Shown piece after piece: positions 37,073 to 60,108 of a stretch of DNA of 64,000 bases (the first letter of the stretch is position 1; the number at the start of each line of letters is the position of its first letter). Location: NCBI GenBank assembly GCA_000146465.1, contig CP001946.1. One strand, written 5' to 3'. A program made the translations under genes and the position numbers. The notes under the pieces were generated by a model, which worked only from the letters and a program-made list of their open reading frames with translations, ran no database searches and was not told the origin of the DNA.

Positions 37073-40000
37073 ATGATGAAGGACCTTTTTGTAGGTAGTG
37101 AACCAAGCGAGGTGAAGGCCAACCGGCTCAAGAAGTACATGGAAAGCGGAAGATTCCTTGAAACTCTTTTTTTCCCACATGAGTTTTTGGAGTCACTAGT
37201 TTTATTTGCTATTCAGATACTCAACAGTACGGAACCTGAGAAAAAATCGTCATTTGTGTCTGGAGGGAATGAATCTCGCTACATTGTCCTCAGGCTTTTG
37301 AACAAGTTTTCGCTGAAAAGGATTAGGAATACAGGATTAGTGCATGCACTCCATTGTGTGCTTAGAAATGACAATCTCCCAAACGTGATTTTGTCACTGA
37401 AGGCATTAGGTTCTCTGAGCAGATCGGGGGTCATTGCAGGAGATCTGGTGGAGGTGCATGTTGGAGTCCTTCTTGGGATGGTTCACAACCTCTTTACAAA
37501 CCTGGAAAGTGGAGAAGAAGGGCTCATTGAGATATCGCTATTTACTCTTACAGAGATGCTGACCCATGCCAGGGTTTTTTTCCGTGGGTTGGAGTACCAT
37601 GCTGTGAAGATTGATCAATTTTTGGCCTGTGTGTATGGAAACATCAGAAGAGCTTTTGAAAACCGGAGATTCATGGATGGGATGATGCATAAAAGGACGT
37701 CTTCAATAAGCATGTGTTCTGGAATCTGTAGTCTCCTCAAGCTGACATATGAGCAGCTTCCTATTGTGTCGAAGTCAGGGCCTTATCATGTGTTTGCTTG
37801 TGAGGCAGCATTTGTTGGGATGTATTACTGTCCCTCCGATCTCCTGGACCTTAGGAAGGAGATCTACATGCTGTTTAGCAAGATGTGTATAGGAGACAAA
37901 GAGATGGTTCTTCCTATGATGGACAAAGTGTATATGGTTCCATTTCTTTTTTCTCCAGATGCACAGCCAATGAGCGTCAAGGGGATTGGAATGCTCTCTG
38001 AAATGCTCGTGCATGTTAAGGAGAACCTTAGCAAGGCAGCATACATGGAGTTTGGGTCGAAGGTATTCAATGTGCTTTTTTCAACCTGTTCTTCAATAAG
38101 GAGGCTATGCAAGGAAGTTCATGAGGGAGGAGAAGAAAGACAGAAATATCGGAGGAATGCAAGCGATATAATTAGCCAGGATATTGAAAGTCTCATAGTA
38201 TGTCTAGGGGCGGTAGAGAACACATGCAAATGCTTTGGAGGCAGGACAGGAGATTCCGAAGAACTCAGCCACATTTATCTCAAGAGCTTTTACGATATAA
38301 GGAATGGATTTGAAGGAATCCAGGGATTAGTAAGACTGGGATGCGCAGGCAAGGAGGAGGAGTTGAAGAAGGTTGTAAAGAAATTTGTCTCTGGATTTCG
38401 AGAAGTGATTGGAAGAGCGGGAATCCTTGAAAAGTCTGGAAATGGGATTGTCTTTTCTGTACCCGAGATCAATATCCTGTATGAGATATTTGAGAGGTCT
38501 TTTGATGTATTTTTGCATGAGTGCCTGTGCCAAGAGCAGGACATTGAAGAGTTTTTCTCTGTGCTGTCTCTTGTTAGAGAGCACATTGGAAGCGATATAG
38601 TCAAATGCCTTTCAGAAAGAATTGTGGAGTACAGCAAGAAAAACGGGGAGTTCTTTGGGATATGGAGATTGATGAGCAGCTCTGTAATTTTGGGAAACAC
38701 ATTCTGTGGATATGTACTTCCACGAATGATCGAGGAGCTCGATAGAGAGGGATTTGAATTTGTCAAGAGGGCAATGAGATATATTGTTCCGTTTTTTGGA
38801 AACGATATAAAGAAGATAAAGCGAGTCAATACATTCTTCATGCACAGGATAATATCAACTCTGTTGGCAGCCAAGAGGATGGAAAACTTCGAAATTTTGC
38901 TGGAGATCTTCAACATGTTTGGATCGATGCCTGAGAAGAGCAGCTTTTTCCAGAAATACATCTTCGACAACTTCTCAAGGATAGTTTCTCATCTTATGAA
39001 TCTTTATGAAGTTGAGGGAAAGAGCATATTTATAGAAATGATATTTTCCTTGCCAATAAGTATCAACCTACTTGAATCAGATATCCAATTTCTCATGAGA
39101 CCTATTGAAGAGGCCTTAATGCTTCATGGGCCAGTAAGAACCAAGGCGCTGTCTATTCTTGTGTATGTTCTTGACTTTTCAACACCAGATAAGATTTCGG
39201 GTCTTGAGAAGACATGGCAAAACATTTTAAATAACGTAGCAGAGGGCTTGAAGGATAGCACAATGCTGTCGTTGTGTTCGAGAATACTGGGGAAGCTCAA
39301 GAGCTATCACAAGACGTTTGTAGTAGATGGGAAGATGTTTGAAGAGACAAACGAAGATTTAAAACTTATTAGGATAGTGGTGGATGGAAAGCATGCAGTT
39401 CCTGGGCATCTCTTGTTTTTCGATGCAGTGCAGAAGATAAGGGGGGCCTTTGAGCTGTCTGAAAAGAGCTTTGGGCCTTCTGGTGTTCTCACCAGGTTCA
39501 GGAGTCTAGGGCCCCGATGTGGAGATGGAGAAGCCAAAGGCGCAGCATTCAGACTAGTGGAGAAGGTGGTGTGCCATCTGATGGGATGGAACTCCTCTGG
39601 AAAGAACTTGATTCAGAATTATTACGAGTCTCTTCTGGAGGAGATGGAAGAGATAGGAAGCATTCCAGACACATTGGATTACATACACTCGGTTCATGGG
39701 GTTATCTCTTCGTTAGGCGGGAGGAAATGCTCGGACAGTCGGCATTTGGCCCAGTATGTCTACGATGCAATCCTCACGCTCTTCAGTTGCCATGGAACCC
39801 CTTTTGAAAAGAAAGCTCTGGAACTCCTTCATTCTATTTTTGGAGTCGTGATACTCCACAAGATATCTACTCTTCACAGGCCCAAGGGGAAGAGATACAC
39901 GATTCTTCTTGACACAGACACATTCCTTGATGCACTTGTAGAGTCGTTTTGCGATACCGAGAACTCGATGCCTTTCAAGGTACTCTCTGTAATGTTTGTC

Positions 40001-43000
40001 CAGATGTACGAGATGTTTGGAAGGAAATGCGAATACTTCTGTGTTGAGATGTATAGGGCTGTTTTCTCCAAGCTCAAGGCCATGTGCAAGTCTTCGAACA
40101 AGAGATGTAGAGACGCTGGAATCAATGGAATCATATGTCTTGCAGCAACAATGCCTATTCGAGAGCTTGTGATGCTCCGAGTCCCGGAAGATTCGTTTTC
40201 ATGTACATACCTTTATCTTCTTCCTCGGGGATCCGAAGATTTCTCTCTTCCCCTCCGGCTGGTTGTCTTTATCTTGAGATTCAGATACAAGGGAATTAGG
40301 AATTATTTGCTCTCCTCTGGAATGGAGAGGCACTTCATGATGTCGCATTTCAGACCGTTTGTTGCAGGCCTCTTTGATGGGAGAAAGGATGTTATGGACT
40401 TTTCCCAAGCTGTGTTGAGAGAAGTGTTCCAGAGCTATGGGCCTCGCCTACTGGAAAGACACAAGGACATGGTTTTTGGGTTTTTCAAGAAGGAATATGT
40501 AATAGGAAGCAGGGAAACAATGATAATGCACTTGAAAGTGTTTATTTTCTGCGTTCGAGAGGGCAAGTGTCCGTTTGACGATTGCGAGATGAAGTATCTT
40601 ATCGAGAAGTTTCTGGATGGGATTGCAAGCAACGAGGAGTGGAGAGGAACTGGAGGGGTTTATATGGGCTTTGACCACTGTGAAAGAGACGAAAGCACAA
40701 ACAACGAGGACTTTTGCAAGTGCAACAGATGCGGGAAGGGCGAAGAAGACACAGAGATTGTTCTAGGAGGGATCCATAAGAAGTTATCTTCGCTATCTAT
40801 GAGGGATTTGATGGAAATTGCGCTTAAAAACAAAATGGATGTGGTTTGCGGAGATTGCAAGAAAAAGATCTACAGACATAAGGAGGAGTGGTCTCCTAGA
40901 TTCAGTAACGAGGGGGAGGAGTTGATTTACTGGATAAGAGAGTTTTATTTGCTTGTCATTGAGTACAGGAAGTCCTTTGAGGAGATAAGAACAGCGGTTT
41001 TGTATTTATTGAGATATGTTTCGGACGATTCCTCGGATTACCTGCAGAAGGCACACAATATACGGCCGCAAGAGACAGAAGAGGTAATATCAGAGGAAGT
41101 GGAGAAGTGTCTGTCTGAGAAGGTCGACTACAAGATCCTCAACATGTTACTGTGTGCACATTCGATATCGGGGATTCGGGAGAATCCAAGGGTAGGGATG
41201 CTTGTTCTGAAGATTCTGAAAGAATTCAGGATTCCGAAAGAGTTTGCAATAATAGCACAGAATGACAGATACTCGATGCTGGCAAAGGCGTATGAAATAG
41301 GAATTAGACTGAAAAACCAGGAGGGGCTGTGCAACGAGATTCTGGAAACATACTTTGTACTTGACGGATATGCCAAGAGTTACACTTCCAGGATGTATCC
41401 TCGAATGATTAAGTATGTAGAGGATCTTGGATCACAGTTTGTAAGTTGTATGTTCCGAAGAATTCAAGACCCATCGGCTTACGAGTTGTGTTCACAGCTC
41501 TGCAAGGACTCGGCCAAGCTAAGAGAAATGGTGTTTGGAATGAAGGACAGACTTGCGGAGAGAATATCGCAAATATATTGCAGACTGGAAGGAAATGACT
41601 CCATAGAAAAGGATGTGTTTGTGTATTCGTATCGGTTTCTTGATCTTGCAGGGTATGAGATGAAGCCTGTCGACATTCAGGTTATTCTTGGGATTTATGC
41701 TGATGTGAAGACAAAGCCCAGACATGCTGTTGAAATGAGGGGGCTGATAAATAGATGCATCGACAGGTTTTCTCCAGAGAACCTCGAGACACTGTTCAAC
41801 ATAGACCCATGGTTTATGTCTGTGGATGGGATAGACCCGGGATATCTTACAGAGGGGCTTTCACCCTTGACTCTTAGGGGGATTATCCGGAGTATTGATA
41901 AGAGAAACAGACCCATGATTGAGAATTTGAGCCTATCTCTTGGAGAAAACAGACACATGCTGATTGAGATGTTTGTGGAGATGGGGATCAGGTCTGAGAA
42001 GCTTATTGGATACTGCAAGGAGAATCTACACATCACGAACCTTAGAGGGCTCCTGCTCTACTATCTATGCACATTCGAGCCCTTGCATGTCTATTTTGAA
42101 CTCCTGTTCAAGCTCCCTTACGAAGACAGGAAGTACACGCTATACTGTCTAGAAAGGATTGTCGATGTTTTTGATCCTCTTCTCTTTGAAGAGATAATTC
42201 TGATTGTGCTGCGCTCTGAAGTAAGGTTCAAGACAAGTCTCTGTATTCTGTTTCCTCTACTTCTATCGAGGCCCAGTCTTATCAGCAAGAAGATTGTGCT
42301 TGAGCTTACAGGGTCGATCTATAAGCTTCTTGATTCAGAGAACTTCCCCCAGCAGAGAATGGGGTTTAAGCTGTTTGAAGTTCTATACAACAGGTGTCTA
42401 TTAGGAGATGGATCGGGGAATATATGCAGAGAGTATGATTGGATCATAAGGAACATATACACTCTCATGTTTGTGAGGTTTATTCATATGGATCAGGACT
42501 TGGATGGAGATCTTCTTGAAAAGTACAATCTGGAGCTTGTTTTTGAGTTGGTGGAGTACTCTCCCAAGGAGCTAAATCTTAACAACATGTTCAGCTTTCT
42601 CGAAGCGGAGATTCTGAGCAAGAAGAATGAGGAGTACAAGATATGGTTTTTGAAAAGCATTGGAATGGCCATAGCGCCGTATTTCCGATCAAGGGCTTTG
42701 GGAATCAAGGTTATTGAGTATCTGGTGCGCATTGGGATGTGGAATTACAAGCTTCTTCGGGAGGAGCTGGGGGTTGTTGTGTACGACCCGAGCCTACTGT
42801 ACAATCTCCTTTGCATGCTTTGTAGCAAAGCTGGTGAAAGAGCTGGTTTGGGATGCAAGGCTCATAGGGATGATGTAGAAAACATGGAGATATGCTTGAT
42901 AGTGATAAGACATTTATTTGCAGAGTACAATAGAGAGAGAGGAGAAGCCAACCAGAAATATGTGGAGGAAGGACTTGAGAAGCTGTTCTATGTTTTATCT

Positions 43001-46000
43001 CTATACTCTGAAATGAAGAATATTGTGTGCTCGGTAACTAGGCTGTTCGTGGAAGCATTCAAGGACAATTCCTCTCGGATAGATCCATTAGTAAGCAAGA
43101 TAAGTTTCTTGATGTCTGATTTCAGAACGTCGCTTGCAGACAAGATTGAAATGGCTTGTCTCTTGAGCAATCGAGGGCATGACAATGAGTTTCTTAGTGA
43201 GATGCTGCTTCCGGCCTTCAACAATTATCTCTACTCTGGAGTTACCTTTCCGTCAGGCCTGCAGAAGTTCTTTATGAAAGGAGTCAGTTCGAAAAACAGC
43301 ATCTTGAGGAATGGATATCTAGATCTGATGAACCGCATTGTTCCTGTAAGCAAGTGGATGAGACTTAAGTATCTGCTGGAAATGGAATGGAAGCACAACG
43401 CAAAGATAGGATACACAATGACGGCGATGATGATCCTTTCTTGCCACACAGCAGAACTGGAGGCAGAAAAGTACTCGGAAATAAGACCGAGCAAGGATAT
43501 TGAATATCCTTGGTCACGGGAGGGGATGAGATGCAAGGGAAATGTGAGCAGATGCAGTGGACTTGTTGCGAATCTTCTTGAAGATGTTGGCCTATACAGG
43601 TCCAAGGCGTCGAAGCCAGACCTCCTGGAAATTCTGTACCACTTCGACGATTCCCTACTTCCGGTGCTATCTGGAGTCTTAAGAACTACTGTATGTGGAT
43701 TGGATTCCGAGAAATGTAAAAGCATATTCGAAGGCTTTGTGAAGTTCTGCTCGGAGGTTACAGGAGAAGGGAAACTTCTTGGAGCCCTTGTTAGGGGTCT
43801 TGGGCCTATATATAGACATGCAGATCTATATGAGCTTATTAAGGTATTCCGAGGAGGAGAGGGATGGTACACGCTACTGGAGTATGCAGATGATAGGCAG
43901 AAGACAGAGATATACAGGAGATTGATGAACTTGGATGAATACTTTGGAATGTCGCGGTCGGTGTGTATTTTTCCTGAGACGATGCAGGCATATTTCCTTC
44001 AGCAAGTGGGAAAGACCAAGGAAGCACAGGATCTCTATGAGGAGATCCAAGCCAGAGCAGGAAAGCACAAGATATCTTTTGACGAAAGGGAGTACAAGCT
44101 GTGGCAAGATGAGTGGGTGGCATGTGCAAAAGAACTGCAGCAATGGGATGTATGCTACGATGCAGGAGTGGAGATCGGGGATGGCTTGCTAAGTGGAGAA
44201 TCGTTGTGGCATCTTTCGAACTTCACAAGCCAGAAGGCAGTGGAGAAACTCAAAAGCGTGATTGGCAAGGGAGTAGGATTTGAAAGAGAATTCCTCGATG
44301 TATTTGCAGATATATTTATGAAGTATTCGGCAGAGAGGATCAAGGGAATCCTAACAAAGAACATTGCAGAGCTCAGGAGTTACCCCGTAGGAAGTGGAGC
44401 AAACCTAAGAAATCTTATGTATCTGCAGATCATCATAGAAATGGTTGAGGCAGAGCCTATTTTTAACGACAAGATAGACTCGATAGAAGCATTGACATCG
44501 ATATCCTTCCGATGGAAGGACAAGGAGCCGTCCATCTACAGCTCTTTTGCAGAATGGAGCCTCTTCAAGACATGGAGAAAACATGTATATTCGAGATTGG
44601 GAATGGGAGAGAAGATGTGTGGCAGAGAGATGGGATACAAGCAGCCAGAAAGAGGTTACACAGAGGAGATGGGAAATTCCTTGGGTAGAAAGCCTATAGC
44701 ATCGCATTTGTTTTCTCCAAAAGAGATGAATGAGAACTATGCAAAGATAAAAAAGGAACTGGTGGCCCGAGGAACAAACGAATTGGCAAAGACTCTGAAC
44801 ATGTTTTCCAAGGCAGCCATCGACCATGGATACTATGATGTGGCTCTATTCCATCTTAAAGAAGTCTTTGACCTAAGCAGTGTAAAGGTAGGGGATGCCT
44901 TCCAGAAGGTTGTTTATGAGCTACTTTGCTTTCTCGGCAAGAAAGAGTACAAGATAGGAGCCGAGCAGTGCATGTCGGCAAACATACAACATTTCAGTGA
45001 TACACAGAATTCGGTACTATTCAACATCAAGGGGCTGTTCAATGAGAAGCTTGGAAAGGCTTCGGATGCCGAAAAATTCTATTTGCAGTCTGCACAGATA
45101 TGCAACACAGTTGGAGAAAACTGGCTCACATGGGCGAGTTTCTTGTTTGGTAGGATCGATGGAGATGCTCCAGAAGTAAAGGAAGACGTCTTTGTTGCTC
45201 TTCTACAAGCCATTACCTACTGCAACGGCCCAAATGCAAGGAAAGGAATTCTTAAGATGATTCTACTTATGGGAGAGCATTCCTCGCTCTGTGATGTGGA
45301 GTTGTTCCACAAGGTTCTTCAAGAGATTGACATCTCTCGATTTATATACTTTATTCCGCAACTGATTGGGCTACTGGAAAAGGAAGACTCAAGGTTGGTG
45401 CAAGCCATACTTGGCAAGATCTCGGAAGAGTATCCGCAAGCAGTGATAGGGCCCCTTAAGGCAGCTAAGGAAAGAATAAGAAGAAGCTTGGGGCTTGGAA
45501 AGGAAGATATAGAATGCAAGGTGGGGGAACACAAGGTAGAAGGTAGAAGTAGCGAAGATTCAAAGAGTCTTGGGACTGGACTGGTGACTGGAGAGAAGAA
45601 CATGTTTTTGGAGAATGTTATGTGTATATACAACCGGATAAAAAACGCCCAACCAGGGAAAGAGTTCTGGAAGATCCTTCACTATCTTCACAATTCGCTG
45701 AACTCCTTCGCCTTTAAGGAGGAGGAGCTTGTGTATCTGGAGATCGAGAAGATCTTCAACAGTGCTGTGTCGCATGTTGTGCATGGGGCTGTTCCATCGG
45801 GCCTTGGCCATGCTAAGATTCTGAACGAGCTTATTTTCCAGGTTTCTGTTTCTTCCCTAAGCCGGAAACTCAAGGAAGAGCTTACATCTTCCATTCTCAA
45901 GATGAGGTGCATCTGCCCTCTTGAGAACATCGATGAAATGGTACGGTTCAAAAGTAAGGTGCAGAAGATTGTAGAAGAATCCTTCCATAGGATGGACAAG

Positions 46001-47380
46001 TCCGAGGAGTCTGAGGTGAATCTACTGCTATACAGATCCGACTACAAGCATCGAGTATTTGGACAATACTCGGAAATAAGAAGAAGTTACAAGAGCCTTG
46101 CGAGCATAGAGATGTTTGAGCCTCGGCAGCCCTACATGTACAGAAAAAGAATGGGATGCAATAGAATTCACCTGAGAGGAAGCGATGGGAAGATGTACAG
46201 ATACGAGATGAAAGAGTTAAGGAAGATGAGGTTCTCTGAGTTTGTCCTTCCACAGATATCTTTGATGATTAACGAGGCGATGGGCGAGGACACCAACTTG
46301 CGAAGGAGAGGTGCGGAGTTGAGGTTGTTTGTTCCCTTTATTGCTAGTGAAGTTCTTGCATTGAAATGGATCAAGGAGCCTGTCTATTACATGGATAGTA
46401 TATTGGAAGAGGGGCTAAGTAGATACAAGATGAACATTGATCAATGTGTGCTTCTTTATCTTGATCACTTTGCAACTATCTACGATGGGTTAGACTCAAG
46501 TCCAGGGCATTTCGAGAACAGATATCAGCTGGAGAAGGGACTCACTGCAAGCCTAAAGCCGAGGATTCAAGGAGACGAATGCCCCAATATAAGGAAGAAA
46601 AAAGGCTTTCTTGAAAGCAAGGAGTCGCAGGAGAACCTCATAAACAATGTTAGAATGGTTATTGAGAGGCAGAGGGAGAAGTACACAAGTGGTTTGAGAC
46701 AGAACGAAGTCGAGTGTCTTGGATGCAATGAAAGAGGAGAGGGGATTTCTCCATGTACCTATAGATATGAAACCTCAAAGCGGCAAAGATACATGGCTTA
46801 CGAGAAGGTATACAACACCTTCAAGAAAACTAGCTTTGTGGATGATTACTTCAAGCTTATTTATGGAAACCTGGGAGGATACTTCCGATTTAAAAACAAA
46901 CTTCTTTCCAGTTATTCAGCCAACAGTGTCTTTTTGTACACGTTCTCTGTTGTAGACAGGAGGCCAAGAAACCTTGCCATCACCAAGACTACCGGCTGTT
47001 TTATGAATAGAGACGTCTGTTGCGAGGAAGCTGAGATATCGAGCAAAGGAAAGGGAATGGGGGCCATAGGACCAGGATACCAGAAGCTCTTTGGGAAAGA
47101 AGGGATAGAAGGCACAATGGTGTCTATTATGTATCATTATGCCGGGATGGTAAACAAGGGAGATTGGAGTAAGGATCTGGTGAAAGCTCTACTTGAAGGC
47201 AGGTTTATAGACATGACGGGAAAAGGACTCAAGGGAGCTCACAAGGAAATGCTAAGTAGAGTCTCTGAGATGATTGGAAAAGGCGAGGATGGGACCCATA
47301 ATGTGATTCCGATGGTTAGTGAGTGGATGGACATGTTCAAGCTAGCACAGATTGATCCAAGACATATGTGCTGGATGTGA
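37073..47380 (+). CDS. TRA1: PIKK-family giant protein, Tra1/TRRAP-like pseudokinase (HEAT/FAT repeats + PI3K-like domain + FATC), 3435 aa
   Basis: A single 10.3-kb ORF. The C-terminal region aligns with the PIKK kinase domain: IHLRGSDGKMYRYEMKELRKMRF...NLRRRGAELRLFVPFIASEVLALKWI parallels mTOR [26 protein letters not shown]...SLRKNLSIQRYAVIPLSTNSGLIGWV. The catalytic loop reads VVDRRPRNLAI (mTOR DRHPSNLML) and the activation-loop DFG is replaced by NRD. Degenerate catalytic residues and this size fit Tra1 rather than TOR or ATR. FATC-like end ...IDPRHMCWM. Confidence 0.6.
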   Translation: MMKDLFVGSEPSEVKANRLKKYMESGRFLETLFFPHEFLESLVLFAIQILNSTEPEKKSSFVSGGNESRYIVLRLLNKFSLKRIRNTGLVHALHCVLRNDNLPNVILSLKALGSLSRSGVIAGDLVEVHVGVLLGMVHNLFTNLESGEEGLIEISLFTLTEMLTHARVFFRGLEYHAVKIDQFLACVYGNIRRAFENRRFMDGMMHKRTSSISMCSGICSLLKLTYEQLPIVSKSGPYHVFACEAAFVGMYYCPSDLLDLRKEIYMLFSKMCIGDKEMVLPMMDKVYMVPFLFSPDAQPMSVKGIGMLSEMLVHVKENLSKAAYMEFGSKVFNVLFSTCSSIRRLCKEVHEGGEERQKYRRNASDIISQDIESLIVCLGAVENTCKCFGGRTGDSEELSHIYLKSFYDIRNGFEGIQGLVRLGCAGKEEELKKVVKKFVSGFREVIGRAGILEKSGNGIVFSVPEINILYEIFERSFDVFLHECLCQEQDIEEFFSVLSLVREHIGSDIVKCLSERIVEYSKKNGEFFGIWRLMSSSVILGNTFCGYVLPRMIEELDREGFEFVKRAMRYIVPFFGNDIKKIKRVNTFFMHRIISTLLAAKRMENFEILLEIFNMFGSMPEKSSFFQKYIFDNFSRIVSHLMNLYEVEGKSIFIEMIFSLPISINLLESDIQFLMRPIEEALMLHGPVRTKALSILVYVLDFSTPDKISGLEKTWQNILNNVAEGLKDSTMLSLCSRILGKLKSYHKTFVVDGKMFEETNEDLKLIRIVVDGKHAVPGHLLFFDAVQKIRGAFELSEKSFGPSGVLTRFRSLGPRCGDGEAKGAAFRLVEKVVCHLMGWNSSGKNLIQNYYESLLEEMEEIGSIPDTLDYIHSVHGVISSLGGRKCSDSRHLAQYVYDAILTLFSCHGTPFEKKALELLHSIFGVVILHKISTLHRPKGKRYTILLDTDTFLDALVESFCDTENSMPFKVLSVMFVQMYEMFGRKCEYFCVEMYRAVFSKLKAMCKSSNKRCRDAGINGIICLAATMPIRELVMLRVPEDSFSCTYLYLLPRGSEDFSLPLRLVVFILRFRYKGIRNYLLSSGMERHFMMSHFRPFVAGLFDGRKDVMDFSQAVLREVFQSYGPRLLERHKDMVFGFFKKEYVIGSRETMIMHLKVFIFCVREGKCPFDDCEMKYLIEKFLDGIASNEEWRGTGGVYMGFDHCERDESTNNEDFCKCNRCGKGEEDTEIVLGGIHKKLSSLSMRDLMEIALKNKMDVVCGDCKKKIYRHKEEWSPRFSNEGEELIYWIREFYLLVIEYRKSFEEIRTAVLYLLRYVSDDSSDYLQKAHNIRPQETEEVISEEVEKCLSEKVDYKILNMLLCAHSISGIRENPRVGMLVLKILKEFRIPKEFAIIAQNDRYSMLAKAYEIGIRLKNQEGLCNEILETYFVLDGYAKSYTSRMYPRMIKYVEDLGSQFVSCMFRRIQDPSAYELCSQLCKDSAKLREMVFGMKDRLAERISQIYCRLEGNDSIEKDVFVYSYRFLDLAGYEMKPVDIQVILGIYADVKTKPRHAVEMRGLINRCIDRFSPENLETLFNIDPWFMSVDGIDPGYLTEGLSPLTLRGIIRSIDKRNRPMIENLSLSLGENRHMLIEMFVEMGIRSEKLIGYCKENLHITNLRGLLLYYLCTFEPLHVYFELLFKLPYEDRKYTLYCLERIVDVFDPLLFEEIILIVLRSEVRFKTSLCILFPLLLSRPSLISKKIVLELTGSIYKLLDSENFPQQRMGFKLFEVLYNRCLLGDGSGNICREYDWIIRNIYTLMFVRFIHMDQDLDGDLLEKYNLELVFELVEYSPKELNLNNMFSFLEAEILSKKNEEYKIWFLKSIGMAIAPYFRSRALGIKVIEYLVRIGMWNYKLLREELGVVVYDPSLLYNLLCMLCSKAGERAGLGCKAHRDDVENMEICLIVIRHLFAEYNRERGEANQKYVEEGLEKLFYVLSLYSEMKNIVCSVTRLFVEAFKDNSSRIDPLVSKISFLMSDFRTSLADKIEMACLLSNRGHDNEFLSEMLLPAFNNYLYSGVTFPSGLQKFFMKGVSSKNSILRNGYLDLMNRIVPVSKWMRLKYLLEMEWKHNAKIGYTMTAMMILSCHTAELEAEKYSEIRPSKDIEYPWSREGMRCKGNVSRCSGLVANLLEDVGLYRSKASKPDLLEILYHFDDSLLPVLSGVLRTTVCGLDSEKCKSIFEGFVKFCSEVTGEGKLLGALVRGLGPIYRHADLYELIKVFRGGEGWYTLLEYADDRQKTEIYRRLMNLDEYFGMSRSVCIFPETMQAYFLQQVGKTKEAQDLYEEIQARAGKHKISFDEREYKLWQDEWVACAKELQQWDVCYDAGVEIGDGLLSGESLWHLSNFTSQKAVEKLKSVIGKGVGFEREFLDVFADIFMKYSAERIKGILTKNIAELRSYPVGSGANLRNLMYLQIIIEMVEAEPIFNDKIDSIEALTSISFRWKDKEPSIYSSFAEWSLFKTWRKHVYSRLGMGEKMCGREMGYKQPERGYTEEMGNSLGRKPIASHLFSPKEMNENYAKIKKELVARGTNELAKTLNMFSKAAIDHGYYDVALFHLKEVFDLSSVKVGDAFQKVVYELLCFLGKKEYKIGAEQCMSANIQHFSDTQNSVLFNIKGLFNEKLGKASDAEKFYLQSAQICNTVGENWLTWASFLFGRIDGDAPEVKEDVFVALLQAITYCNGPNARKGILKMILLMGEHSSLCDVELFHKVLQEIDISRFIYFIPQLIGLLEKEDSRLVQAILGKISEEYPQAVIGPLKAAKERIRRSLGLGKEDIECKVGEHKVEGRSSEDSKSLGTGLVTGEKNMFLENVMCIYNRIKNAQPGKEFWKILHYLHNSLNSFAFKEEELVYLEIEKIFNSAVSHVVHGAVPSGLGHAKILNELIFQVSVSSLSRKLKEELTSSILKMRCICPLENIDEMVRFKSKVQKIVEESFHRMDKSEESEVNLLLYRSDYKHRVFGQYSEIRRSYKSLASIEMFEPRQPYMYRKRMGCNRIHLRGSDGKMYRYEMKELRKMRFSEFVLPQISLMINEAMGEDTNLRRRGAELRLFVPFIASEVLALKWIKEPVYYMDSILEEGLSRYKMNIDQCVLLYLDHFATIYDGLDSSPGHFENRYQLEKGLTASLKPRIQGDECPNIRKKKGFLESKESQENLINNVRMVIERQREKYTSGLRQNEVECLGCNERGEGISPCTYRYETSKRQRYMAYEKVYNTFKKTSFVDDYFKLIYGNLGGYFRFKNKLLSSYSANSVFLYTFSVVDRRPRNLAITKTTGCFMNRDVCCEEAEISSKGKGMGAIGPGYQKLFGKEGIEGTMVSIMYHYAGMVNKGDWSKDLVKALLEGRFIDMTGKGLKGAHKEMLSRVSEMIGKGEDGTHNVIPMVSEWMDMFKLAQIDPRHMCWM

Positions 47381-53040: not shown

Positions 53041-53871
53041 TCACTTGTAATTACTGTAGCTACAGTGGATCTTGTAGTGTTGTAGCATATTGTCTTTTCT
53101 AGAGAACCTCTTGTTGCAGTCCTTGTTCAAGCACTTGAACGGCCTCAATCTGGTATGAACTATGTAGTGCCTTTTAATTCTACTCAAGGTAGGCAACTCC
53201 ATAGTGCATCCCTCGTACGGGCAGACGTAGGACTTTACCCCATTCTTGGATTTATAAGGGAACATCGATGTTTCAAAGTCTGCAAAGCTTTCTATTCCTG
53301 CTTTCCTTGTATCGGAATCCTCCTGAGATACCGACAGCGACTCAGAATCCCTGGACTTCCTGCCCGCCTCAGGCTCCACTTTATTTACCTCTTCCAGCAC
53401 TTCTCTCTTTCTTCTTTTTATCTCCCTTTTCTTCTCGTTGGCCTCTCTGTTCATCTCCAGGTGTCTGTTGATCCTTCCCCTGACAATCCTCCTCATCTCT
53501 TCCTCGGCCTCAAGAATAAGAAACCTTAAGGACATTAGCTTCTCGTCAAACTCCTCCGAATCTTCACTATGAACTGACCATTGGCTCTCAACCGACATAG
53601 GCGTGTTCAATCCGTCGCTGTTGTCGTTTCCATGGTATTGGGTGCGGCACTTCTTTTTGTCTCTAGGGTCTATGTCTTTATTATAAACACTTCCCCATGG
53701 GTAGCCTAGAGAAGAAAAGTCTCTGTTCCGCTTTCTCTTTTCTCCTCGATATCTGTTCCCTCCTCGTCCCAGCTCATAGAACCCTAGATAATTGCTATCG
53801 TTTTCATCTCTGCTTGATTCCTCGCTGAAGTCGAGCCTTCTTCGATTCATCTCCACTCTGTTCTTCAACAT
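53041..53871 (-). CDS. C2H2 zinc-finger protein (two or three C-terminal fingers; basic/acidic N-terminal region)
   Basis: [55 protein letters not shown] gives consecutive C2H2 fingers. Confidence 0.6.
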
Positions 53872-54039: not shown

Positions 54040-55107
54040 ATGATATTTTCAATAGGAGACCAGAAAAAGAAATACGAGACAAGGGAGGATGTCTCAGGGG
54101 TGGTACAAGAAATAAAAAAGTCTCTGGACGAGCTTGTGGAGGTTGATCTGTCTGGAAACCATTTTTCCGAAGAGGCAATGGAAGAAATATGCCATGTCCT
54201 CAGGGATGCCAAGAACCTCCACGTGATCAATCTTTCCAGTGCGTTTCTGGGCCTTGACAAGGAGAAGCTGTACTCTAATCTCGCCATGCTTTCAAAAATG
54301 CTTGCCAATCACAAGATACAGAAGATTGACCTGAGCGACAATGCCATAAGCTCGGAGTTTCCCCCTGAGCTCGGGGAGTTTATTTCCTCGTCCACTGATT
54401 TGGTCCACTTGAAAATGAACAACTGTGGGCTTGGGAAGATCGGAGGGGGTAGGCTGGGAGAGTATCTTCTCAAGATAGCAGACAAGACCAAGCTGGAGGT
54501 GGTGGATATTGCCCAGAACAGGTTTTTCTCTTTTCCAAAGGAGCTTTCCGACGCACTGCTAGGATTCAAGAATATCAAGGAGCTTCGAATCCAGTACAAT
54601 ACAATCGAGGAAGAGACAATGCTTGAGTTCCTAAGGGCATTCCAGAGCCATTCTCTTGAGGTGCTTGACATAAGAGATAACTTCCTGTCTCTAGAAGGGT
54701 CCAGATACCTGGGGAGTCTTTATTGTGAATGGAATCTGAGGGAACTCAGGGTTGGAGACTGTATGATGGGAAACGAAGGAGTGAAGGATTTCCTCGAAAG
54801 AGCAAACAAGAAATTTGTGCCAATGGCCCTTCCTGGGGATTACGACGGCAAGAGGGAAAGAATTGCCCTCGATATATCGTACAATGAGTTTGAGCAAGAT
54901 GCTGTTGAAATTCTCAAGGACTTCTGCAGTCGGAATATCATCAAGGAGCTCGTTGTGTTTGGAAACTACTACGACGACATAAGCGATATCATCGATATTG
55001 TTGAAAAGCAAGGAGGAGTTGTTATAACTGAGGAGCATACAGATCTGTCCAGCGACTCTGGGATGGAGATAGATGAGTCTGTGATTGAAGGGATTGCAGA
55101 GATGTAG
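54040..55107 (+). CDS. RNA1: Ran GTPase-activating protein (RanGAP1/Rna1; leucine-rich repeats)
   Basis: LSGNHFSEEAMEEICHVL...IDLSDNAIS...LKMNNCGLGKIGGGRLGEYL parallels RanGAP1 LEGNTVGVEAARVIAKAL...LDLSDNAFG...[20 protein letters not shown]. Acidic C-terminus. Confidence 0.75.
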   Translation: MIFSIGDQKKKYETREDVSGVVQEIKKSLDELVEVDLSGNHFSEEAMEEICHVLRDAKNLHVINLSSAFLGLDKEKLYSNLAMLSKMLANHKIQKIDLSDNAISSEFPPELGEFISSSTDLVHLKMNNCGLGKIGGGRLGEYLLKIADKTKLEVVDIAQNRFFSFPKELSDALLGFKNIKELRIQYNTIEEETMLEFLRAFQSHSLEVLDIRDNFLSLEGSRYLGSLYCEWNLRELRVGDCMMGNEGVKDFLERANKKFVPMALPGDYDGKRERIALDISYNEFEQDAVEILKDFCSRNIIKELVVFGNYYDDISDIIDIVEKQGGVVITEEHTDLSSDSGMEIDESVIEGIAEM

Positions 55108-55283: not shown

Positions 55284-57362
55284 ATGATCAAAAAAGACGC
55301 AGAAGAGATTCTTATGGATCCTCTTGCAGGAAACATCATTGATGCAGAGGAAATAGTTGCAAGGAGCGAGATAAGGGATGAGCAAGCAAGAGTTTTGGAA
55401 GAGGAAAAGGAAGATGGAAGAAAAGGATCCAGATATAAAAGGCTGCAGACTGTCTTGGGAGAAGGGACATTCAAGAAGGTTTACAAAGCAGTTGACCAGG
55501 AGGAGGGGAAGGAGGTTGCATGGAATGAGATCAAAATCAACGAGAAGGGGCAGGACAGCAAAGAGAGGGCATTATTTGCCAATGAAATAGCACTCCTGAA
55601 GTCTATTTCACATCCTAACATCCTTCGGATCCTCGACTATTGGTTTACGGCTGACAGCTTTATATTTATCACGGAGCTGATGAGTGGAGGAACACTCCGG
55701 GAGTACATAGCAGAGATAGGGGATCTGAACGTCAAGCTTATAAAGAAGTGGGGAAGGAACATTCTTGAGGGACTTGTGTATCTTCACAGCCAGGATCCTC
55801 CGATTATCCACCGGGATATTAAGTGCGAAAACATCTTTGTGAATGCAGCTCTTGGAGAGGTGAAGATAGGAGATCTTGGGGTTGCCAAGGAAAGAAGGAT
55901 GAAAAGATATACTGTTGTTGGAACTCCGCAGTTTATGGCAAGAGAAATGTTTGAGGGAGAAGGATATGGGGAGAAGATAGATGTGTATGCATTTGGGATG
56001 TGTTTGATTGAGATGGCAACGGGGGCGTATCCATATAGGGAATGCACTACGGCTGCAGAGGTCTACAAGGCAATTATACAAGGGGTTCCTCCTGTTGTCT
56101 TGAACTCTATCAAGGACGTATGTCTTAGGAATCTGATTATGAACTGCTTAGTCTCTGAAAAAGACAGGCTAAGGAGTGTGGATTGCTTGAAGCACCATTT
56201 CTTTGACAGTAGTAGCACATGCAATGGAGAATGCATTCCTGCTGAGTGCATGTCTGGAGTTCCTCTGACAGCACCTGCAAATGACATGGAAATAAGTTTT
56301 CTGTCATTCAAGGATAATGTAATTACATTTCAATTGTTTTTCATGAGCATGGCAAGGTTCATCAAGTTTGACTACGACCTCCAGTCAGACACTGTTGAGG
56401 ATGTTGCAAATGAGATGCTGGAGGAGGAGGTAGTATCTGAGGATCAGAGAGACACGCTTCTTGGGCTTCTATCACGGGGAATTGAAAAGGCAAAGCAGCG
56501 GATTGAAGAGATGGAGTGTAAGAATACAGAAGAAGAGATGAAGAAGTTGAGCATAGATACAGAGAAGGAAAAGAGCAAGGCAGAAGGGCCGAAGAATGAT
56601 TTCAACAAAATAACGGACAGAAATCTGAGTATAGAGGAGGTTGAATCGATGCTGGAGATAGATGTGAAGTTTTGCCAGGATGAGACCAGCCGTCTGTATA
56701 CCTGGTCCAGAACGGTAAGAAATGGGGATTCGAAAGTGGGGGTGGAAATTGGATCTTCTCCAGACCATTCGCCAGAACTATTACCCAGCGAAGGAATAAT
56801 GGAGGAACAGAAAAAGACTGGGGGAGGAAAGTGCTTCGACGAACTGGAGTGTCCCAATAGAAAATACGATGAAGATGTCTCTATTGAAGAGTTTGCAGCA
56901 GATGTTTCGGTTGCGACAAAGAGATCATCTGAAACAGTTACCAATTGGATAAAGGCATTCAAGTCGAATGATATCGACAGTGTGTTTGAACTAAAGATTC
57001 TTGTGGACGAGGACTGGGACAAGCTTGGGCTCACTGTTTTTTCGAGCCGAGCCATGAAGAACATGCTCTATGGAGTTGGCAAGATTCCTCTGAAGGAGAA
57101 GCAGCTTCCTACCAACACCTCGATCAAGGACTATGGAGGAGGGGTTGAGATCAAAGAGTTTCTCCATGAGATCGGGGCTATAGTTGGTAAGGACAAGTGT
57201 GTGTCTATCTGGGAAAGCAAACTTCTTGCACAGGATATTAGGACTGTCGAGGAGCTCCGATCGCTGCACCAGGACGACTGGGATAGACTGGGTCTATCTG
57301 TGTACTCGTGCAGGGTGATCAAGAATGTTATTTACAAAAAAGGAAGAGTAGTGCTTTGCTGA
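55284..57362 (+). CDS. WNK-family serine/threonine kinase with PF2/CCT-like autoinhibitory domain and two C-terminal SAM-like domains
   Basis: Gly-loop lysine with no beta3 lysine ([13 protein letters not shown]...VAWNEI versus WNK1 GRGSFKTVYKGLD...VAWCEL). Catalytic loop [15 protein letters not shown] matches WNK1 [27 protein letters not shown]...[30 protein letters not shown] parallels GTPEFMAPEMYE...[29 protein letters not shown]. The PF2-like region [25 protein letters not shown] parallels AIEFSFDLERDVPEDVAQEMVES. Two tandem SAM-like repeats (WIKAFK...[24 protein letters not shown] and [23 protein letters not shown]). Confidence 0.7.
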   Translation: [692 protein letters not shown]

Positions 57363-57786: not shown

Positions 57787-59310
57787 ATGAAGACAGAAAT
57801 TAAAGACTTGTTTGAGAAGGACAAGAACAGAGCCAAGAAGCTGGCCAGAAAAGTTGATGTGGGAAAGGAGTTTATATACTATGACTTCTCGAAGACTCAT
57901 ATCACGGAGGAAATCATTGACAGATACTTGGAAAAGATGGATGGATTTGGAGAAAAAATAGAGGGAATGTTTAATGGAGAAAAGATAAACTATACCGAGG
58001 ACCGGAAGGTTCTGCATGTGGCACTGAGGGATAAGGAAGTGCTGAGGGGGATTTCTGGAGAAGATGTGAAGCTGGACTCGGATCGTAAGATGGTTTATGA
58101 CGAGTTGATGAAGATCAAAGGATTTGTAAAGGATTTCGATGAAGGAAAGATATGTGGAGTAACTGGGAAGAGGTTAGAAATGATTGTCAACATAGGAATT
58201 GGAGGAAGTGATCTTGGGCCCAGGATGGTGTGCGATGCACTTGAGTACTATGGAAGGAAGGGGATAAAGACTTACTTTATCTCAAACATCGATGCAACGA
58301 ACACAATCAAGGTTTTTGAGAAGATTGACCCTGAAAGAGCTTTATTTATTGTGGTAAGTAAAACATTCACGACGCTTGAGACCATCAAGAATGCCGAGCT
58401 TTCAATGAGGTTTCTGGAGAAGAGGCTTGGTAAAGACAGAGCTGAGATTGCAAGTAAACATTTTGTTGCAGTGAGCTCGAATGTAGACGAAGTCAGGAAA
58501 CACAACATTTCCCGTGTGTTTTCGATGTGGGACTTTGTTGGAGGAAGATTCTCCCTGTGGTCTGCAGTTGGGCTGTCAATAGTTCTCTACATTGGATTTG
58601 ATAACTTCATATGTCTACTTAGAGGAGCTTCTGTTGTTGACGAATATTTCCGAAAGAGCCGGGGAAGGTCAAATGCTGAGATGATGCATGCGATTGTGGA
58701 GCTGTTCTATTCGGAGAGGGGATACAACAACAAGTGCCTTGTCTCCTATGACGAATACATGAGGAAATTCTATCTGTATCTCCAGCAAGCGGAGATGGAA
58801 AGTAATGGGAAACCATCGCAAAAAACAGACACAGGCTATATTATATGGGGAGGAAAAGGGACGGATGTTCAGCATTCGTTCTTCCAGTTGCTGCACCAAG
58901 GTACCAGGAAGATCTTGACGGAGCTTCTGATGCCTCTCAAACCTTTACATTCGGAGGAGGAGTACCATAGGATGGTTGTTGCAAATTGCTTGGCACAAAG
59001 CAGAGGCCTGATGATTGGAAAGGAAGATCCAAATCCAGAGAAGTCATTTGAAGGAGACAAACCAACCGTTACAGTCTGCTACTCTAAGCTCACGCCGGAG
59101 ACACTTGGCGCCATGATAGCGCATTATGAGCATAAGATATTCATTCTGGGGCTATACTGGGGCATAAACTCCTTTGATCAGCCTGGAGTTACTCTGGGAA
59201 AGAAGATAGCCATTGAAGTGCTTGAGTCCTTTGATGAGAAGAAAGAGTCGGAGAAGTTTGATGAGTCGACAAACGAGATGTTATGCCTGATGAGGAGCTG
59301 CAAGAGGTGA
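57787..59310 (+). CDS. PGI1: glucose-6-phosphate isomerase
   Basis: [11 protein letters not shown]..., GIGGSDLGP, the SIS domains and VVSKTFTT are the PGI signature regions. Confidence 0.9.
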
Positions 59311-59412
59311 TCTAAGATGGGCTCACGAGGGTACTACCTTAATAAAATCCTCTCTTTGGTTTGTGTTCTTTGAGATTTGGTGAACGTTTTTTGGAGGAGA
59401 GGAAAACCCTTA

Positions 59413-60108
59413 ATGTTTTCATTCAAGGAAAGGATGAAGACATTTGCTTCATGGCCTGAGAACTACGGTGTTGCAACGCCGGAGGGTCTTTCCATTGCAG
59501 GATTTATCTGCCTATCTACGGAAGAGAACAATCTGACGGTGGAGTGTGTGTATTGCAATAAGACACTGGAATGCTGGGAAAGGACAGACATGCCGGCAAA
59601 GGAGCACTACCTCCACATGAACAGCTGTCCACTTTTCAATGTGAACAGATTGGAGAGCAGGGTAAAGATGTTCAATGGATGGAGTCTCAAGGAGGCGAAG
59701 GCACTTGCAAGAATGGGGTTTGTTAAGTACAACCTTGGAGAGTCGGACTTTATCTTTTGCTATAAATGCGGATCGATCAACAGAAGCCATTTGTGTGAAA
59801 GAAAGAGAGGGCATCCATACAGCTTGGAGAAGCGTGGGAGTGTATTTTTTTACGACTTAATCGAAGGCATTTACAACAAAGAGCTGGTGAAGCTTACAGA
59901 GTACAATGTATATATTCCACAGCACACCAAAGAGTTTCTGAAAGAAGTTACCGGTGGTTGTTTGGGGTCGGTTTTTCGAAGTGTCGAGGATGTGATAGAA
60001 GAATACATGGGAAACAAGCTGTTTGAAATAGACAAGGCTATGAGCCATGATATCGAGAGAGCTCTTGATGAGGTGGTGGCGGGAATTGGAAAAAAAAGCC
60101 TGGGATGA
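59413..60108 (+). CDS. BIR-domain protein with two BIR repeats (survivin/Bir1-like)
   Basis: BIR1: RMKTFASWPENYGVATPEGLSIAGFICLSTEENNLTVECVYCNKTLECWERTDMPAKEHYLHMNSCPLF. BIR2: RVKMFNGWSLKEAKALARMGFVKYNLGESDFIFCYKCGSINRSHL.ERKRGHPYS. Both show the C..C...H......C pattern. The first ATG is at 59413; the track starts at a TTG. Confidence 0.65.
   Translation: MFSFKERMKTFASWPENYGVATPEGLSIAGFICLSTEENNLTVECVYCNKTLECWERTDMPAKEHYLHMNSCPLFNVNRLESRVKMFNGWSLKEAKALARMGFVKYNLGESDFIFCYKCGSINRSHLCERKRGHPYSLEKRGSVFFYDLIEGIYNKELVKLTEYNVYIPQHTKEFLKEVTGGCLGSVFRSVEDVIEEYMGNKLFEIDKAMSHDIERALDEVVAGIGKKSLG

Follow-up and report, generated by a model that had tools for sequence, protein, structure and literature searches.

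A WNK kinase of Encephalitozoon intestinalis with a predicted C-terminal tandem of SAM-like domains

Introduction

WNK (with-no-lysine) kinases are the best-understood intracellular sensors of chloride and osmotic pressure, and what is known about them comes almost wholly from animals and plants. SAM modules are carried by several other protein kinases (Ste11/Byr2, ZAK, Eph and TNK1), on which they serve dimerisation, polymerisation or adaptor binding, and the SAM tandems of AIDA-1 and Odin bind other SAMs. Here we analysed a WNK gene of the microsporidian Encephalitozoon intestinalis ATCC 50506, located at 55284..57362 (+) in a stretch of 64,000 nucleotides from contig CP001946.1 (GenBank assembly GCA_000146465.1; hereafter the window, a microsporidian chromosome segment with a GC content of about 43%). 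Sequence comparison and structure prediction indicate that its product joins a WNK kinase and a CCT-like domain to a pair of SAM-like domains at the C-terminus.

Animal WNKs cluster under hyperosmotic stress by means of coiled-coil and disordered C-terminal regions, and in vitro, WNK1 and WNK3 autophosphorylate less in the presence of chloride and more in that of crowding agents (PMC8684725). Signalling to OSR1/SPAK through RFx[V/I] motifs is a feature of the animal WNK pathway, not a criterion for membership in the kinase family. Among fungi, the WNK PkpA dates from 1995, as cited in PMC10301571. The microsporidian WNK has already been catalogued in a kinome survey of 2014, which listed one WNK in each of four microsporidia, remarked on the missing subdomain-II lysine, speculated on a role in spore adhesion and left the C-terminal domains unmentioned (PMC4280135).

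Results

The open reading frame (ORF) at 55284..57362 is complete (692 residues plus stop) and lies exactly where a preliminary description, made from the DNA letters only, had placed it; every motif quoted there is present. The translated protein matches the annotated "Ser/Thr protein kinase" of E. intestinalis ATCC 50506 with 100% identity over its full length, and the ORF is the single WNK orthologue of this species. The kinase domain occupies residues ~51–307 (55434..56204), with a Pfam Pkinase match at residues 55–307 (6e-51). A phmmer search of all PDB sequences with the protein placed WNK3 and WNK1 in the first 15 ranks (2e-70 to 2e-67), the next kinase family following at 2e-33; kinase-domain identity to WNK1/WNK3 is approximately 40–43%. 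A Foldseek search of the full-length AlphaFold model against PDB likewise returned WNK1 or WNK3 at all of ranks 1–29. With WNK1 and WNK3 far ahead of all other kinases in both sequence and modelled fold, the WNK assignment proposed in the preliminary description is secure.

The catalytic residues were then assigned by alignment with mammalian WNK1. Since the Gly-loop motif, which begins at residue 59, pairs with the WNK motif GRGSFKTVYK, K64 (55473..55475) is the equivalent of WNK1 K233, the catalytic lysine of the Gly-rich loop (beta2). The motif VAWNEI begins at residue 78 and pairs with WNK VAWCEL, so that N81 (55524..55526) is aligned to WNK1 C250 at the beta3 (subdomain II) site, where other kinases have their catalytic lysine. 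Conservation was counted in an alignment of 73 microsporidian and early-fungal WNK orthologues. The lysine at K64 is invariant (73/73), which bears out the reported shift of the catalytic lysine from beta3 to the Gly loop, and so are the alphaC glutamate E101, the HRD motif at 176–178 and the activation-loop threonine T210 (55911..55913), which is aligned with the WNK1 autophosphorylation site S382. The DFG motif is replaced by D197-L198-G199 (55872..55880), corresponding to WNK1 D368-L369-G370, the backbone of the chloride site; its D and G are invariant and its middle residue is L or M. The side chains of the WNK1 chloride pocket (F283, L299, L369 and L371) correspond here to I116, F128, L198 and V200, which are hydrophobic but not identical. 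Invariance of the catalytic residues, of the activation-loop threonine and of D and G in DLG across a very deep phylogeny is an argument for conserved enzymology. The beta3 asparagine, present in 73/73 of these fungal and microsporidian WNKs in place of Cys250 of mammalian WNK1, is a lineage signature.

The C-terminal tail consists of two units of about 70 residues each. Unit 1 spans residues 528–600 (56865..57083), with predicted helices at 534–544, 549–561, 567–572, 575–578 and 585–596, and unit 2 spans residues 617–692 (57132..57359), with helices at 623–634, 637–649, 655–659, 663–666 and 673–683. The two units share 36% identity over 76 residues (BLASTP E=8e-17); this value, together with the conserved repeat classes described below, rules out chance or artefact as the source of the repeats. 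The AlphaFold model of the tail has a predicted local distance difference test score (pLDDT) of 93.3 and a predicted template modelling score (pTM) of 0.87, and in it each unit is a compact five-helix bundle, as it also is in the full-length model. In a Foldseek search against PDB, the best matches of the tail were the SAM tandems or pairs of AIDA-1, EphA2/SHIP2, Odin and Caskin1, together with single SAMs, and SAMs of Ste11, ZAK and Eph as well as TNK-fusion SAMs were all among the fold matches. Overall, the predicted model resembles solved SAM domains above other folds, and superposition on the AIDA-1 tandem (2kiv) covered 121 residues at 3.2 Å.

At the level of sequence the picture is different. 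Even at E<=10, Pfam gave no SAM family for the full-length protein, so a SAM assignment at the Pfam threshold is rejected. A Pfam scan of single units gave at best SAM_EPH (E 0.0044; 11/36 units) and SAM_TNK (0.015; 7/36), all sub-threshold matches that are consistent with a SAM fold. A profile built from the unit alignment and run against PDB sequences hit the SAMs of ANKS3 and BICC1 in register at a non-significant E of about 1; the top match of that search, USP/RXR (E 0.27), was judged spurious. Comparison of the unit alignment by hhalign with EphA2-SAM, p73-SAM and E. coli alpha-CTD gave 1–4% probability for each and did not discriminate among them. The module has a signature of its own, W28, D50-W51, R62 and N66 in unit numbering, in which W, D-W, R and N are invariant in all units. 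Given the lack of a threshold Pfam match, we use the label "SAM-like" and treat the module as a divergent family of its own. Thus, of the earlier proposal of two C-terminal SAM-like domains, the fold is supported by a confident model matching solved SAMs and the Pfam assignment is not obtained. On this model, the C-terminal units are a tightly packed pair of divergent five-helix domains, and in silico they pack as one rigid intramolecular SAM tandem of the AIDA-1/Odin/Caskin type.

To assess the distribution of the module, the tail was compared by BLAST with the 120 best homologues of the WNK protein. All 58 microsporidian orthologues in this set have the two-unit tandem at the extreme C-terminus, a conservation that the preliminary description had singled out for checking. 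Across all searches, the genera in which two-unit tails were identified include Nematocida (five species or strains), Vavraia, Trachipleistophora, Dictyocoela, Gurleya, Binucleata, Conglomerata, Encephalitozoon, Ordospora, Nosema, Enterocytozoon, Enterospora, Ecytonucleospora, Pancytospora, Enteropsectra and Glugoides. Exactly one unit was found in 62 of 62 WNK homologues from chytrids, Mucoromycota, Zoopagomycota, Glomeromycota and an aphelid, and this fungal single unit is extremely well conserved (...QDIMTVGDLRDLHDEDW..LGLTVFA.RALKN...). WNKs had been described as sporadic outside animals and plants, a view that does not hold here, where they are general in early-diverging fungi and present in every sampled microsporidian genus. 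The PkpA/WNK proteins of early-diverging fungi (Phycomyces, Mucor, Batrachochytrium, Spizellomyces, Rhizophagus, Basidiobolus and Amoeboaphelidium were compared) show an orthologous layout of kinase, CCT-like domain, linker and SAM-like module, with ~36–40% identity over ~80–85% of the protein, and they differ in having one SAM-like unit where Microsporidia have two. By these sequence comparisons, the layout of kinase, CCT-like domain and SAM-like module is the ancestral fungal state, and the duplication alone is specific to Microsporidia.

A distance tree of 224 units placed repeats 1 and 2 in groups of their own (75/77 each), apart from the fungal single units, and unit identity was about 50% within a repeat class versus 32% between classes. 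Since the two repeats form separate groups with these identities, the sequences indicate that the tandem arose by one ancient duplication before the radiation of the sampled Microsporidia, both copies having since been kept under constraint.

The module is rare: across 1.84 billion cluster representatives, an exhaustive HMMER search gave 190 carriers. A word-indexed homologue search with the unit alignment returned only short fragments resembling terminal exons of WNK genes. Outside WNKs, LIM-domain proteins of two chytrids carry the module C-terminally, in Synchytrium endobioticum at residues 866–936 of 941 and in Polychytrium aggregatum at residues 811–881 of 894. Its presence on these proteins shows that the module is mobile, and the fungal WNK may have hetero-SAM partners in the chytrid LIM proteins.

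Several further sequences were recorded during these searches. XP_053992348 and XP_053992347 (589 and 614 residues), labelled Hylaeus volcanicus and derived from a bee genome assembly, carry the module in two to four divergent copies (..DW..L.LP..L..A..) and lack any Pfam domain; contamination, transfer or descent from a remote branch of the family could account for them. In microsporidia of Daphnia, the WNK gene models are much longer (Conglomerata obtusa, 2832 residues, partial; Gurleya vavrai, 1208; Binucleata daphniae, 1119) and the SAM-like tandem is still terminal; these models may reflect genuine N-terminal expansions or fused gene models. A JGI metagenome protein of 624 residues contains eight consecutive module-like repeats with weak Pfam scores for SAM_EPH, HhH and alpha-CTD. 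This protein and one low-complexity-repeat protein inflate weak Pfam matches, and neither was used as evidence.

Between the kinase and the tail lies a CCT-like (PF2-like) domain, CCTL1, at residues ~335–385 (56286..56438). Pfam OSR1_C (PF12202) scores 24.6 bits against a cutoff of 22.4 at residues 360–387, a match that covers only profile positions 22–49 of 63 and that includes the segment quoted as PF2/CCT-like in the preliminary description; CCTL2_WNK stays below threshold on the full protein (19.4 bits; cutoff 27). In the model, strands at 335–343, 346–353 and 358–365 are followed by helices at 371–380 and 386–422 (pLDDT 83–96), and this predicted arrangement agrees with WNK CCT1 as published, a sheet of three strands with two helices. 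The phmmer alignment to the WNK3 kinase-CCT1 didomain 5o2c extends to residue 386, and 5o2c is also the top Foldseek match (365/368 columns, E 1e-26), outranking every kinase-only WNK chain; the high root-mean-square deviation to it shows only that the relative orientation of the domains differs. The identification as a PF2/CCT-like domain therefore stands, while the accompanying word "autoinhibitory" is less certain, since a purely autoinhibitory role of WNK CCT1 has been questioned in the recent literature. The long helix at residues 386–422 (56439..56549) is, in the model, the second CCT helix and possibly a coiled coil.

The remaining parts of the protein are less well defined. The N-terminal extension, residues 1–50 (55284..55433), is modelled with low confidence and one predicted helix at residues 21–40. 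The linker, residues ~423–520 (56550..56843), is predicted to be disordered (pLDDT <50 at 421–520) and is poorly conserved, with no consensus in the 73-sequence alignment. From sequence and model together, the order is thus N-terminal extension, WNK catalytic domain, CCT-like (PF2) domain, long helix, disordered linker of ~100 residues and two SAM-like domains.

With regard to the downstream pathway, a motif search found no RFx[V/I] motif for OSR1/SPAK docking in the E. intestinalis WNK and found it in only 1 of the 73 fungal and microsporidian WNKs. For four microsporidia, the published kinome table lists neither a FRAY (OSR1/SPAK) sub-family nor MAPK-pathway kinases, and its sole STE20 kinase is placed in the sub-family "MKC". 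Given that both the motif and these entries are absent, the downstream route is expected to differ from the WNK-OSR1/SPAK-cotransporter cascade, and the output of the microsporidian WNK is probably not through OSR1/SPAK.

The neighbours of the WNK gene are ordinary eukaryotic genes, functionally unlinked to the kinase: upstream, genes for a C2H2 zinc-finger protein (53041–53871, -) and a leucine-rich repeat protein (54040–55107, +), and downstream, genes for phosphoglucose isomerase (57787–59310, +) and a BIR-domain protein (59377–60108, +). Spacers of 176 bp on the upstream side and 424 bp on the downstream side separate the WNK gene from its neighbours. Farther upstream, at 37073–47380 (+), an ORF of 3435 residues combines a FAT domain with a Tra1 HEAT-ring region; its product is Tra1/TRRAP-like and unrelated to the kinase.

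Discussion

We consider the data best explained, with moderate confidence, by a conserved microsporidian WNK with WNK1/3-like catalysis, a SAM-like tail for self-association or docking, and an output that probably does not run via OSR1/SPAK. By analogy with WNK1/3, catalysis would depend on Lys64 and activation would proceed through autophosphorylation of Thr210 in the activation loop, and the hydrophobic pocket centred on DLG could be a site of chloride binding or of a response to osmotic pressure. Short linear motifs would dock to the CCT-like domain. If the tail behaves like other SAM modules, its self-association or docking to a partner would raise the local kinase concentration and favour trans-autophosphorylation, and clustering of this kind would be analogous to that mediated by the coiled-coil and disordered C-terminal regions of animal WNKs. 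In the model, the two microsporidian units pack together as in the AIDA-1, Odin and Caskin tandems, which would leave their outer surfaces for further contacts, so that the SAM-SAM pair may cap, nucleate or replace an interaction in trans.

The packing of the units also admits a reading without self-association. The tandem could be a closed intramolecular pair that serves as a docking platform for a substrate or localisation factor; the single fungal unit would then pair in trans, for example with the chytrid LIM proteins, and Microsporidia would have internalised the partner by duplication. The best structural matches of the tail are indeed intramolecular SAM tandems and hetero-SAM pairs, the pTM implies a fixed pair, the same module ends the LIM-domain proteins of Synchytrium and Polychytrium, and the two repeats have diverged into conserved classes. 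However, module-bearing LIM proteins were seen in only these two chytrids, and tandem SAMs of the Caskin1 type still polymerise, so a packed pair is compatible with self-assembly; we regard the closed pair as a serious but rather doubtful alternative. That the units are instead nucleic-acid-binding modules, either helix-hairpin-helix/alpha-CTD-like or RNA-binding SAMs of the Smaug/Vts1 type, tethering the kinase to DNA or RNA, is very improbable.

Another possibility concerns the kinase itself: Microsporidia may have kept the WNK fold and lost ion or osmotic sensing, the enzyme serving some other essential role (cell cycle, polarity or scaffolding) and its WNK hallmarks being inherited baggage. 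The lack of RFx[V/I] docking motifs, of a FRAY/OSR1 entry and of MAPK-pathway kinases would fit this, as would the non-identical chloride pocket and the fact that the kinases retained by microsporidia are mostly cell-cycle related (PMC4280135). On the other hand, the deep invariance of the catalytic residues, of the D and G of DLG and of the activation-loop threonine speaks against it, and we think such a loss unlikely. It bears on the output pathway, not on the architecture, and is compatible with the structural part of the explanation preferred here, namely a WNK with a SAM-like tail. As to biological function, a role of this WNK in spore osmosensing or germination is offered as a hypothesis. 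A still broader scheme, which we consider improbable, is that fungal-lineage WNKs use a private, hitherto unrecognised SAM-like module as a clustering or activation device, equivalent to the condensate-forming C-termini of animal WNKs, that the SAM-SAM pair of Microsporidia took the place of a partner in trans, for which the LIM-module proteins of chytrids are an example, and that their sole WNK became a self-contained osmotic or ionic switch without OSR1/SPAK, which could act during the large osmotic changes of spore germination.

The preliminary description knew of no described WNK with a kinase-PF2-SAM-SAM architecture. Within the limits of the library that could be searched, no account of a SAM-bearing WNK, fungal or microsporidian, came up in full-text searches, and precomputed Pfam annotation of all homologues lists kinase and CCT-type families only. 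The kinase is not new in the same sense: it has been catalogued since 2014, and several database entries are already named "WNK lysine deficient protein kinase". Thus, the gene and its WNK nature are known, while neither the SAM-like module nor its confinement to the fungal lineage nor its microsporidian duplication appears to have been described in the searchable literature.

These observations define an early-fungal and microsporidian branch of WNKs with a compact SAM-like module in place of long disordered or coiled-coil C-terminal regions. Parasites with kinomes of ~30 kinases have retained the WNK gene and doubled the module, which belongs to a small new domain family (~190 clusters worldwide, none caught by Pfam at threshold). 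The tail, a tractable construct of 170 residues with a confident model, could be used for probing how clustering controls WNK activation. The analysis also points to a human opportunistic pathogen with a conserved kinase whose signalling apparently bypasses OSR1/SPAK.

Compared with mammalian WNK1 and WNK3 (5o2c, 6cn9 and 4q2a), the E. intestinalis protein has in common the Gly-loop lysine, the absence of a beta3 lysine, the DLG motif, an activation-loop site (T210 for S382) and a CCT-like domain directly after the kinase. It differs in having Asn instead of Cys at the beta3 site and in lacking RFx[V/I], a CCTL2_WNK match at threshold and a long prion-like C-terminus, in place of which it has a short disordered linker and SAM-like domains. 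The SAM tandems of AIDA-1/ANKS1B (2kiv), Odin/ANKS1A (5zry) and Caskin1 (3sen/3sei) are only 11–15% identical in sequence to the WNK tail and sit on ankyrin, SH3 or PTB scaffolds instead of a WNK kinase; unlike them, the tail has no Pfam SAM_1 or SAM_2 match and bears a private invariant signature. Fusion of a SAM-type module to a protein kinase is likewise seen in Ste11/Byr2, ZAK/MAP3K20, Eph receptors and TNK1, but these belong to other kinase families and carry the SAM at other positions, and none of them is a WNK or has a module of the sequence family described here.

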